This document shows, one piece after another, positions 1,534 to 64,000 of a stretch of DNA of 64,000 nucleotides (within the stretch, counting starts at the first letter, position 1; each line of letters starts with the position of its first letter). Source of the DNA: Thainema sp. (GTDB lineage: Bacteria > Cyanobacteriota > Cyanobacteriia > Phormidesmidales > Phormidesmidaceae). Both the position numbers and the translations under genes were made by a program. The notes under the pieces are model-generated. The model worked only from the letters and a program-made list of their open reading frames with translations, had not been told where the DNA came from and searched no databases. Location of the stretch: positions 44,515 through 108,514 of the forward strand of contig JBQLZK010000017.1 of assembly GCA_052168235.1 (NCBI GenBank), written 5' to 3'.

Positions 1534-1618
1534 GTACTGTTAGGGCTAACATGTCTTTTACTGGAGTTTTCTTTGCTTACAATCAAAGCAAGCGCTGCCA
1601 TCTGTTGAGGTCTGTCCT

Positions 1619-1930
1619 GTGAGTATTAGCTTGGATTTACCCGAAGAACTCGAAACCGAGCTATCCCAAGAAGCCGCTCGGCTCAACATGCCCTTAGCAG
1701 AATATATTTTACGCATCCTCACCGTTCGACCTCCATTGCAAAATCCGCCGAAAAATGGAGCAGAGCTTGTCGCCTACTGGGAAAAGGTCGGTGTGATTGG
1801 CTCCCGTCCGGATATTGAGATTGCTAAAGATAACCCCTGGCAACCCTTATTCGAGAGCTTAGATCAGTTCTCTGATGATTTTATGGTGACCAGAGAACAG
1901 CCACCGCTGGATATTCGAGAGGCTTTCTAG
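1619..1930 (+). CDS. vapB: VapB-like antitoxin, apparently chimeric (RHH-like N-terminus, VapB/VagC-type C-terminus)
   Basis: Abuts vapC; C-terminus KDNPWQPLFESLDQFSDDFMVTREQP resembles VagC/VapB tails. Confidence 0.7.
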   Translation: MSISLDLPEELETELSQEAARLNMPLAEYILRILTVRPPLQNPPKNGAELVAYWEKVGVIGSRPDIEIAKDNPWQPLFESLDQFSDDFMVTREQPPLDIREAF

Positions 1931-60364: not shown

Positions 60365-63300
60365 CTACACCGAAAGCTTGATTTTTGAACCTTCATTAGT
60401 TTTCGTAATATCCATGCGAGCTTGAAACGCTTCGCGCAGGTGGGGCACGTGCGTCACCATTAAAATGCAGGCAAAGTCAGCTGCGATCGCATTTACCGCC
60501 GCAATCAGTCGCTCGCAGCCCTCGGTATCCTGAGTGCCGAATCCTTCATCGACAACCAGCATCTGGAGCGCCGTGCCGGAGCGCTGGGCCAGCAGTTGAG
60601 CCAGGGCAAGACGAATAGCAAAATTGACTCGAAATGCTTCGCCGCCGGAATAGGTTTCATAGGGACGAGTACCCTGAGCATCAGCAATCAATATTTCCAA
60701 CGTATCAATAATGCGGCTGGAGCGCCGTCCCGTTTTCTGGGTGACGAACTGGACGTGGAGTTGATTGGCACTGAGCCGACTGAGGAGCCGATTGGTTTCC
60801 GTCTCTAGCTGGGGCAGCACGTTTTCGATCATCAGCGCTTGAATGCCGTTCTTGCCAAATGCCTGAGCCAGTTCCTGATAAATACGAAGCTGCTGGCGCG
60901 TTTGGGCTAGCTCCTGCTGCTGAATAGTGAGTTGTTCATGTAAGAACAAAAACTGCTGCTGCTGCTGCTGAAGCTGGCCCAGACGCGCGATCTGGCGATC
61001 GCGCTGCTGACGATACTGCTGAATTTGCTGCTCCAGGTGCTTAATCTCTTCTGAAACATCACCCGCTTGATTGAGCTGCTCGGCGATTTGCTGAATCTGC
61101 TGCTGAAGCTGATGGCGCTCTTGCGATCGCACCTGCCAGCGGTAAGCTAACTCCTCAAACCGCTGCCGCACGTGGGGATACTGCTGCTGGGCCTGCTGAA
61201 GCTGCTGATAGCGAAGCTGCCAGGGTTGCGCCTCGCGGAGAGCTTGCCGAAGCTGATTATGGGCTTCTCGGTCGTAACCCAGTTCCGCCAAGTGACGGTC
61301 AATTTCCTGAATGCGCTGCTGCTGAGGGGAGTTTTGCCAAGCCGTAACTTGCTGTTCCAGATCGGCGATCTCAGTCTCTAGCTCTGGACGACGAGTGGCA
61401 AGCTGTTCCAGCCGCCGCTGTGCTTGCTTCACCTCAGCCTGCTTAATCTCCGCCCAGCGCAGTCGATCCACCTGTCCCCGTGCCAGAGCATGATTGCGCT
61501 CATCATAGCCAAGCTGCGCTAACCGTTGCTCAATCAGGCTTAGCTCCTGGTAAGCGTCAGCCGCATAGGTGTGGTTGCTCAATGTTTCCTGTAGCTCAGC
61601 CTGCTCCTGGCTCAGCTTCTGGAGGCGAGACTGCACTTCTTCGGCCAGACTAAGATGCTCTTGTAGCTGCCCCCGTCGCTCCAAAATGGAGCCGTAGCGG
61701 CCCAGTTCCTCCTCCAGTTCCAGATATTCCTGCCGTAAAACCTGGATCTCTCGCTCCGACGTTGCCAGCTGCTCTCGAATCGTCCAGATTTGCTCCCGAA
61801 TCTCTTGCTGCTCCTGCTGGTGGCGGTCTTGTACCACCTGCCAATGAGTCTCATCCAAGGCGCGATCGCACAGTGGACAAACGGCATTCGGATCAGACAA
61901 CAAGCTAATTTTCTGATCAATTTGGGCAAGCTGCACCTCATAGGCTCGCTGGTGCGCCTGCAACCGCTCCATGAAACTGCGCCGCTCCAGCCCCTTTTCC
62001 CGCACCCGCTGCTGATAAATGCGCCGCTGCTCCAGATACCCCACCTGATCGGTCATATCGACCACAGCTTGGGCAATCTGGGGCTGATGCTCCTGCTGCA
62101 CTTGCAGCTGCTGTTGCGAGTTGCTGATGGCTTCAATTTTGGCCATAATCCGAGCCTGCGCCTGCTCAAGCTGCCGCTGAAGCTGTTGCTGCCGCTGCAT
62201 CAGGGGAGCCGCCTGAAGCTGAATCTGATCCAGCTCAGCTAGTCGCTGCCGTGCTGCCTGTAGCTCCGCCACCGCAACCTCGATTTCATCAACCTTCCGC
62301 AGCGTGTGCTGCACGTCCTGCTCCTGCTCAATCAGCGCGTTCAGGCTGGCTTGCGCCTGCTGGAGCTGCTGCTGAAGAGTTGTTAAGTGTTTCTGCTGTT
62401 CTTGCTGAAGTTGCGATCGCACTTCTTTGGCCTGCTGATAAACCTGGGCTTGCTGCGCCACCTGCTCCTCCTGCACCTGAAGCTGCTGGAGCTGCGCAAA
62501 ACCCTGGTGAATCTCATTAGTTTGATGCAGCAGTTGCTCGATCTGCTGGTACTGCTGCTGTACCTCAGTGAAATCCCGCGTCAGTCGCTGACAATCCTGC
62601 TCTAGCTGCTGATCCTGCTGCTGCAAAAACTGGAGCTGCTGCTGCCAGCCTTGCCGCTGCTGCTGAATCGCCTGTAGCTGTTGCAGGGTCTCACGAGTAG
62701 ACGCCTGTGTTTGCTCTGTCTGCGCCAATTCCAGCTCTAGCGTTTCCCGCTCTTGCCGAATTGACTCTTCTTGCTGGAGATGCTGTTGCGATCGCACCAC
62801 AGTCTGTTCCAGGACGGCTAACTGCGCCCTGAACTGTCGCGCCTGCTCCTTGGCCTGCTCCGCCAGCGTGTCGTACTGATCCAGCTTCAGCAAGTCAGCC
62901 AAAACCTGCTTGCGCTCACTGGGCCGCTTCAGCATGAACTCATCCGCTCGACCCTGCCGCAGATAGGCGGAATGAACAAACGTCTCGTAGTCCAGCCGCA
63001 GGTGCTGCAAAATGAGTTGCTGAGTGGCCTTCAATCCTCGCTCGGTTAAGCTCTTGAACCCCTGCGGCGTTTGGATTTGAAACTCTAAGGTGCTGGACTG
63101 CTTGCGGCGGCGAGATCGCAACACCCGATAAATTTGCTGCTGGTGCTCGAAAATGAAGTCTACCAGGGCTTCGCTGGTGCCCAGGTGGATAATGTCGTCT
63201 TCGATGGCGACGCGACTGTTGCCCCAGAGTGCCCATGCGATCGCTTCCAGCAGTGACGACTTGCCTGCCCCATTGGCACCACAAATACAGGCTACGTGCA

Positions 63301-63376
63301 GTCCTGTGAAATCGACCGTAGCGTCTTGATAGCTAAGAAAATTTTTGAGCGTGAGCTGCCGTGGAATCATAGGCAT
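60365..63376 (-). CDS. sbcC: SMC-like exonuclease subunit SbcC
   Basis: LKNFLSY, GANGAGKSS, CPLC zinc hook, TYSGGE, VVDEGFGTQD. Confidence 0.95.
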   Translation of the reverse strand: MPMIPRQLTLKNFLSYQDATVDFTGLHVACICGANGAGKSSLLEAIAWALWGNSRVAIEDDIIHLGTSEALVDFIFEHQQQIYRVLRSRRRKQSSTLEFQIQTPQGFKSLTERGLKATQQLILQHLRLDYETFVHSAYLRQGRADEFMLKRPSERKQVLADLLKLDQYDTLAEQAKEQARQFRAQLAVLEQTVVRSQQHLQQEESIRQERETLELELAQTEQTQASTRETLQQLQAIQQQRQGWQQQLQFLQQQDQQLEQDCQRLTRDFTEVQQQYQQIEQLLHQTNEIHQGFAQLQQLQVQEEQVAQQAQVYQQAKEVRSQLQQEQQKHLTTLQQQLQQAQASLNALIEQEQDVQHTLRKVDEIEVAVAELQAARQRLAELDQIQLQAAPLMQRQQQLQRQLEQAQARIMAKIEAISNSQQQLQVQQEHQPQIAQAVVDMTDQVGYLEQRRIYQQRVREKGLERRSFMERLQAHQRAYEVQLAQIDQKISLLSDPNAVCPLCDRALDETHWQVVQDRHQQEQQEIREQIWTIREQLATSEREIQVLRQEYLELEEELGRYGSILERRGQLQEHLSLAEEVQSRLQKLSQEQAELQETLSNHTYAADAYQELSLIEQRLAQLGYDERNHALARGQVDRLRWAEIKQAEVKQAQRRLEQLATRRPELETEIADLEQQVTAWQNSPQQQRIQEIDRHLAELGYDREAHNQLRQALREAQPWQLRYQQLQQAQQQYPHVRQRFEELAYRWQVRSQERHQLQQQIQQIAEQLNQAGDVSEEIKHLEQQIQQYRQQRDRQIARLGQLQQQQQQFLFLHEQLTIQQQELAQTRQQLRIYQELAQAFGKNGIQALMIENVLPQLETETNRLLSRLSANQLHVQFVTQKTGRRSSRIIDTLEILIADAQGTRPYETYSGGEAFRVNFAIRLALAQLLAQRSGTALQMLVVDEGFGTQDTEGCERLIAAVNAIAADFACILMVTHVPHLREAFQARMDITKTNEGSKIKLSV

Positions 63377-63611
63377 CCTGCTGTATTGCCCGTGATTTCT
63401 TAAGAGTAGCAGTACAATCGCACTTTAATACGTCTGCACTGAGGAATTTCAGTTATTTTTTGCAGTTTTTTGCAGTTTTTTGCAAATCGTTTGCAAATCG
63501 AATGATACCCGTACTCTAAAAGTCGGAAATCTCTCTTCAAACCAGGCTTATGCAGCGTGACTTCATTGAGTCATATCGATATGATTAAAGCAGATAAGCA
63601 AATCAGGATAA

Positions 63612-63752
63612 ATCGTTCATCTCTCAGTTGAATCAAGTGCGGCTTAATCTCTCCAGCCCACTTCACGAACCACTTCATCAGCAAGTACTTAATTGCCAAA
63701 GCAAGCAAAGAAAGTTGAGAGACGGAAGTAGGAAACCCCGAAGGAACGCGCC
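63612..63752 (+). ncRNA. Glutamine riboswitch (glnA motif, class I) with enlarged P2
   Basis: ATCGTTCATCTCTCA ... TGAGAGACGGAAGTAGG-AAAC-CCCGAAGGAACGCGCC matches the glnA-motif core as I recall it. Confidence 0.85.
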
Positions 63753-63802
63753 GCTTATTGTCGTAACGTCGCTACAGCGTGATTCTAAGGAGCAAGCACA
63801 TC

Positions 63803-63925
63803 ATGAACTCTGAATTATTACTGGGTCTACAACTCATCGCCATCATCACCGCTTCTATTTCGCTTATCTCTCCGATGCTGTACTGGGTCATTACCCATCC
63901 AGTTTCGCTAAGCAGCGCTAAATAA
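63803..63925 (+). CDS. 40-aa single-TM small protein, absent from the ORF track
   Basis: AAGGAG RBS at 63787; MNSELLLGLQLIAIITASISLISPMLYWVITHPVSLSSAK; directly downstream of the riboswitch. Confidence 0.65.
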   Translation: MNSELLLGLQLIAIITASISLISPMLYWVITHPVSLSSAK

Positions 63926-64000
63926 TCCCAATCTGGGGATTGCTGAGTTAAGGGAACCTCGATTAATTGAGGTTTTGGGACAAGGGTGTCTCATTTGAGA

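Follow-up and report, generated by a model that had tools for sequence, protein, structure and literature searches.

Near the end of the 64,000-nt window analysed here (the final 64 kb of contig JBQLZK010000017.1, C17, of the 7.5 Mb Thainema sp. genome G000; coordinates are positions in this window unless another contig is named), we find an element that, judged by its covariance match, is a type-1 glutamine riboswitch, standing before the gene of a 40-residue hydrophobic protein. The riboswitch itself is known; the family of its output is apparently undescribed. Our working reading is that this is a stand-alone gene for a protein with one predicted membrane helix, that the riboswitch likely turns its translation on at high glutamine and that the protein would then likely damp a membrane step of nitrogen uptake. 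Taken whole, we regard this reading as about evenly balanced between right and wrong. To our knowledge, IF17, an inhibitor of glutamine synthetase, is the one output established for the type-1 glutamine riboswitch in cyanobacteria. The peptide family would provide a concrete second target class, with the prediction that its members are made on ammonium upshift and reside in membranes.

The glnA-motif model RF01739 matched positions 63612-63752 of the forward strand in cmscan, covering the full model (1-53/53) over 141 nt with 46.5 bits (gathering cut-off 35) and an E-value of 5e-7, and this was the sole Rfam match at gathering score within the window. The match bears out the original prediction of a glnA-motif switch, and every element listed there was found in its place on the forward strand: P1 (CGTTC/GAACG, 63614-63618/63744-63748), P2 (TCTCTCA/TGAGAGA, 63620-63626/63716-63722), the core CGGAAGTAGG (63723-63732) and, from the RF01739 alignment, a minimal P3 of only ~2 bp at about 63731-63739. 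Mapped onto the crystallised aptamer as described in PMC5393176, the equivalents of G23 and C60 are 63725 and 63749. The P1/P2/P3 three-way junction, the CGGAAGUA core, G23 and C60 are thus all present. The riboswitch leader by itself folds no better than shuffles (z +1.64), and in the folding model P1 and P3 are barely populated without ligand.

Upstream of the switch lies a divergent SbcC/Rad50-type ATPase gene (60365-63376). A promoter-like site (GTGACT, 17 nt, TATGAT; 63557-63585, forward strand) has 9/12 matches, and its TATGAT (63580-63585) does sit where a possible -10 element had been proposed, but the match is weak alone, with one site found against 1.2 expected in shuffles. We infer a transcription start near 63592. 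A palindrome, TGACT-N6-AGTCA (63558-63575), spans the -35 region; it is only partly kept in the congener G001, our reference for pairwise comparisons with G000, and is therefore possibly a chance occurrence. The RNA evidence consists of contigs assembled from four RNA runs out of the seven listed, from which level, strand and start are not readable; one contig of 221 nt is identical to 63615-63835, and congener-like contigs span 63597-63917 at a word depth far above that of the flanking sbcC pieces, a hint that leader and ORF are expressed.

The AAGGAG ribosome site (63787-63792) and the hydrophobic 40-codon ORF (ATG 63803, TAA 63925, forward strand) also lie where they had been foreseen. The protein is predicted to form a single membrane helix: AlphaFold2 gives one helix only, residues 3-31 (pLDDT 85), as does hydropathy (Kyte-Doolittle 19-mer maximum 2.21). 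By its substitution pattern the gene is under purifying selection, the ORF differing from that of G001 by 13 synonymous changes and one non-synonymous (pS 0.42, pN 0.011), and pN being below pS in 127/127 pairs at 72% to below 100% nucleotide identity among the 90 family cores. Pfam holds no family for the window protein at E<=1. The expectation of a conserved small hydrophobic protein other than DUF4278 is upheld by this selection and by the unnamed family to which the protein belongs. Calling it unannotated was half right, as the named relatives are all "hypothetical protein" but the exact protein is already recorded as a called gene (NCBI, Logan, ENA).

The family emerged from a single-sequence search of 41 relatives that gave weak matches, of which all but two were opened, yielding 25 members. 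A family profile recovered 110 proteins at E<=0.01, the named ones all "hypothetical" and none with a Pfam assignment, and the family comprises 118 clusters at 50% identity, none above 115 aa. P24 and W28 are invariant in 52 sequences. Matches occurred in 66/401 genomes of the class (only the best loci were opened) and, after 7 of 27 matches (L082-L088) were dropped as false on inspection, in 20/301 genomes of the phylum. The relatives with a named host come from filamentous cyanobacteria, among them Leptolyngbya sp. PCC 6406, Halomicronema and Almyronema, and the family is named from cyanobacteria only, bar a 14-residue partial match in a Phycisphaerae MAG. A Pfam/NCBIfam scan of the 25 members returned no family beyond one weak match each and no DUF4278; the ESM Atlas returned only unnamed clusters, at up to 0.83, and a phage search gave no match to the family. 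Ten hand-picked genomes of other families held no credible member (matches at E>=0.004 were judged non-members, and most loci were not opened); one of them, G141, carries the Synechocystis norf4 primer exactly. If the family acts in the way proposed here, its apparent absence from the usual model strains would be the reason why it was overlooked. G192 (3.4 Mb, 7 contigs) holds a switch-less member and Leptolyngbya sp. PCC 6406 (L101) a member with the switch, which makes the family testable in culture. Several relatives hold 2-5 family copies, and G000 itself has a second member without a riboswitch (L090, C34:84-188, reverse strand, 35 aa). The literature covered, which mostly excludes subscription journals, contained no description of the family nor of a glutamine riboswitch before a membrane micro-protein; the supplements of 10.64898/2025.12.20.695498, on new Synechocystis small proteins, could hold a distant member.

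For the linkage to the aptamer we used 90 loci, namely 91 distinct loci at 22 bits or more, window and G001 included, less the false match L083. An aptamer core lies within 110 nt of the start in 42/90 and is lacking in 48/90, in a set that is skewed to the window's own family and whose loci are kin, such that counts overstate independence. When 20 loci were run through cmscan, 7/8 pattern-positives were confirmed at gathering score, L044 being missed, and the 12 pattern-negatives gave one sub-threshold match (L158, 33.5 bits). The hosts of switch-bearing members span three families or more. A tree built from 88 rows and 42 columns, which is weakly resolved, requires 9 changes of the switch label, against 29.5 in shuffles, and places the window protein in the switch-rich clade. 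In 35 of the 42 switch-bearing loci a CGCCUC/GAGGCG helix is predicted over the ribosome site, with C60 paired.

The NtcA consensus is GTA-N8-TAC. Perfect copies stand within 45 nt before P1 in 20/41 switch-bearing loci (0.36 expected) and upstream of 18/48 switch-less members (1.8 expected); with boxes in both groups, the family appears to belong to the nitrogen regulon whether a switch is present or not. Ten of the 18 switch-less boxes come from a single Laspinema/Oscillatoria clade; there, read by eye, ~19 nt separate the end of the box from a -10-like hexamer that follows it, a position that could serve activation or repression. In three members the box sits just behind such a hexamer. Several loci would appear to represent stages of switch decay: cores are damaged in L050 and L158; neither the pattern nor cmscan finds a core in L151, L043 and L046, and several loci retain an NtcA-like box; L014 has an intact switch upstream of a possibly frameshifted family member.

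The mechanism that we propose follows the C60/ribosome-site helix arrangement put forward for gifB (PMC6212724 and its Fig. S3 legend). Without glutamine, the C60-GCCUC stretch would pair with the GAGGCG ribosome site; glutamine would draw C60 onto G23 and so free the ribosome site. Under nitrogen shortage NtcA, bound over the -10 or the start, would repress transcription, and both controls together would set the gene ON at nitrogen excess. That translation is on at high glutamine and transcription released at nitrogen excess seems to us quite probable for the family; for the window copy we lean only slightly towards it.

Two features of the window copy invite other readings. One is its long P2 loop, present as predicted and slightly longer than the ~85 nt originally given: it measures 89 nt (63627-63715, forward strand) and contains an inner hairpin, AAGTG-C-GGCT / AGCC-CACTT (63635-63644/63655-63663). 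The insert might be a functional module of its own, a site for a second ligand or a protein, or a small RNA released by RNase, which we think very improbable. It would be favoured by the fold of the inner hairpin (z -1.74) and by its retention in G000, G001 and the RNA contigs, where all four changes within it fall in the bulge and loop; on these very few sequences (two genomes plus RNA contigs) the structure appears kept, and the base of P2 is extended by two G-U pairs in G000 and by A-U pairs in G001. Against a module, the insert is seen in one genus only and is 13 nt shorter in the congener, P2 sequences are unrelated across relatives, and their lengths are those of DUF4278-type switches: before the peptide family the median is 51 nt (range 19-103; 34/40 cores measurable), the window's being the longest of the sample, and before DUF4278-like genes 45 nt (range 16-68; 19/22 measurable). 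The idea that peptide-linked switches stand out by a longer P2 was accordingly rejected (p 0.68, with kin among the loci non-independent). The crystallised aptamer, moreover, binds glutamine with L2 swapped for a GAAA tetraloop (PMC5393176). An origin of the insert as a genomic repeat was likewise rejected, there being one other 19-nt match in the genome. Nor, for this copy, does the insert make a covariance search miss the switch, as had been feared: its cmscan score exceeds the cut-off although the insert was left in, and equally long RF01739 matches (113, 136 and 150 nt) are already published in Table S1 of Klähn 2018 (PMC6212724). A genome-wide search whose first step was loose recovered 2/4 aptamer cores of G000 and missed the window copy, and the relative missed by cmscan, L044, combines a 93-nt P2 with an altered P1. 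The P2 insert is ordinary and of little importance; it would face away from the binding pocket and is probably a passenger that the switch tolerates.

The second feature is the expression platform (63749-63802, forward strand), whose ribosome site is partly paired with GCTTA just past the aptamer. In the folding model the C60-equivalent is paired with a probability of 0.02 in the window, 0.42 in G001 and above 0.5 in 35/42 family loci, the window copy being among the 7/42 without a paired C60. It is unpaired here because of a 4-nt insertion behind the ribosome site, which neither G001 nor the RNA contigs of runs X2-X4 share. Freeing the first three bases costs 0.78 kcal/mol in the window versus a family median of 3.9, and raises the mean unpaired probability of the ribosome site from 0.37 to 0.51; the predicted coupling of aptamer to ribosome site is weak in this copy. 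Upstream of P1, no GTA-N8-TAC with up to one mismatch occurs in the switch locus of G000 or in that of G001. With the NtcA box gone and the predicted coupling weak, the glutamine response of the window copy may therefore be blunted. Carried further, the family would be glutamine-controlled and the window switch a decoupled relic, with the peptide roughly constitutive or controlled through RNA stability, and the unpaired C60, the insertion, the missing box and the long P2 would all fit, as would the decay or loss of the switch in L050, L151, L158, L043 and L046. We nevertheless hold a relic to be unlikely: all ligand-core bases are intact and core plus platform share 76 identical nt with the congener, which argues for continuing selection, and the ribosome site is still partly hidden and opens further once three bases are freed, in folding models that are crude here. 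It is far more improbable still that the ORF is incidental and the switch orphaned, or acting on something further downstream. Such an idea draws on the break of C17 at a repeat end 75 nt past the stop codon, which leaves downstream genes outside view, and on a sequence scan that found no terminator; it runs against the strong purifying selection, the wide family, the next gene in G001, which is convergent, and the relatives, in which the ribosome site within the switch helix serves the peptide ORF. The repeat (63946-64000) lies outside the unit, starting 20 nt past the stop, has an internal inverted repeat and is absent at the equivalent place in G001; G000 holds it in full length 14 more times, for the most part where contigs end. 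It is likely the terminus of an IS that inserted at this distance behind the gene.

Returning to a glutamine-switched membrane protein, the question becomes what the helix acts on. Because IF7/IF17 and NirP1, small proteins of the nitrogen regulon, slow nitrogen assimilation (PMC11848123), our guess is a brake on a membrane nitrogen transporter: by analogy with these and PirA, the helix would bind an ammonium, urea or nitrate transporter and lower influx. We advance this tentatively, leaning somewhat against it. NrtP is present in 27/40 peptide-positive genomes versus 19/40 peptide-negative ones, and was rejected as an obligate partner, 13/40 peptide-positive genomes being without it; Amt is present in 31/31 genomes searched, and its co-occurrence is therefore uninformative. 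Gene neighbourhoods of family loci are variable, with no shared partner and no tie to nitrogen transporter genes. The nearest to a shared neighbour is a presumably sulfite-reductase-like gene, convergent with the peptide gene in 9 loci that all belong to a single lineage (L036, L038, L042, L043, L096, L121, L155, L157, L158), likely as inherited synteny.

The neighbourhoods leave room for the same regulation with another target, in which the helix would adjust a complex of the thylakoid or of carbon uptake (cytochrome b6f, NDH-1, a photosystem or a bicarbonate transporter) and so rebalance carbon and nitrogen at high glutamine. The size and shape of the protein resemble SliP4 and SbtC, as these are described in PMC11848123 and 10.1101/2025.11.25.690420, and the almost exclusively cyanobacterial naming of the family fits as well. 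On the other side, PDB chains gave nothing at E<=10 except two chance matches, which sets the protein apart from the known subunits of the photosystems, b6f and NDH-1; no homology to small subunits of PSI, PSII, cytochrome b6f or NDH-1 was found across solved chains, Pfam and NCBIfam, where short helices can escape; and the family was not found in many photosynthetic lineages searched. We judge such a target rather unlikely. The transporter brake, in its broadest form, would amount to a second, membrane-level glutamine-sensing arm in filamentous cyanobacteria, a micro-protein family that glutamine riboswitches and the release of NtcA switch on and that acts directly to close a nitrogen transporter; this stays a speculative proposal to which we give less than even weight. 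Klähn 2018 (PMC6212724) lists in cyanobacterial genomes 77 cases as "hypothetical" and 24 as "no proximal gene", for which an explanation is lacking, and mentions some aptamers before genes without a Pfam match; if true, such an arm would explain part of these 101 glnA switches.

Other genes also stand behind glnA switches. The remaining three aptamer cores in G000 precede DUF4278-like ORFs, judged from their M-x-L-T-Y-R-G start. A second non-DUF4278 family, of 89 aa and without a Pfam match, is similar in two genomes of different families (L006:1183-1449, reverse strand; L008:1570-1836, forward strand), with a glnA riboswitch upstream, an anti-ribosome-site helix like that of the peptide family, and a box of the NtcA type that is perfect in L008 and has one mismatch in L006. 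In L032 (about 1570-1810, forward strand) a glnA riboswitch precedes an 80-aa ORF that, by eye against Fig. S1 of PMC6212724, resembles the C-terminal portion of IF17 and lacks its DUF4278 portion.

Among known systems, Norf4 is similar in kind: a cyanobacterial, nitrogen-responsive protein of 31 aa with one helix, whose first residues resemble those of some family members, and which rises on nitrogen removal (PMC5126843). Identity with Norf4 was rejected, as it scores 2.7-3.6 bits against the family profiles (members 36-77), lacks P-x-x-x-W, and has a separate Norf4-like gene in G000 (C22:88351-88422, E 2e-5). SbtC and SliP4, each with one helix, modulate a transporter or a photosynthetic complex, as our working model proposes for the peptide; compared by description, they differ in length, regulation and gene context, and the gene of SbtC adjoins that of its target. 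IF7, PirA and NirP1 share with the family the format of small stand-alone nitrogen-regulon genes (PMC11848123) and act by binding partner proteins, which by analogy is assumed for the peptide too, whereas their described targets are soluble enzymes or PII; scans of the Pfam, NCBIfam and PDB libraries showed no homology to regulators of this type. The closest parallel in leader design is gifB (IF17, DUF4278) of Synechocystis sp. PCC 6803, which combines a type-1 glutamine riboswitch with NtcA repression (PMC6212724). The outputs differ, a hydrophobic one-helix peptide as against a soluble glutamine-synthetase inhibitor, and the window copy departs from gifB in its P2 loop of 89 nt, its lack of an NtcA box and its weak predicted coupling. 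The leaders are nonetheless alike in belonging to the same aptamer family, most peptide-family relatives are predicted to form the same C60/ribosome-site helix, and about half of the switch-bearing relatives carry an NtcA box directly before the aptamer, where gifB has its repressing site.
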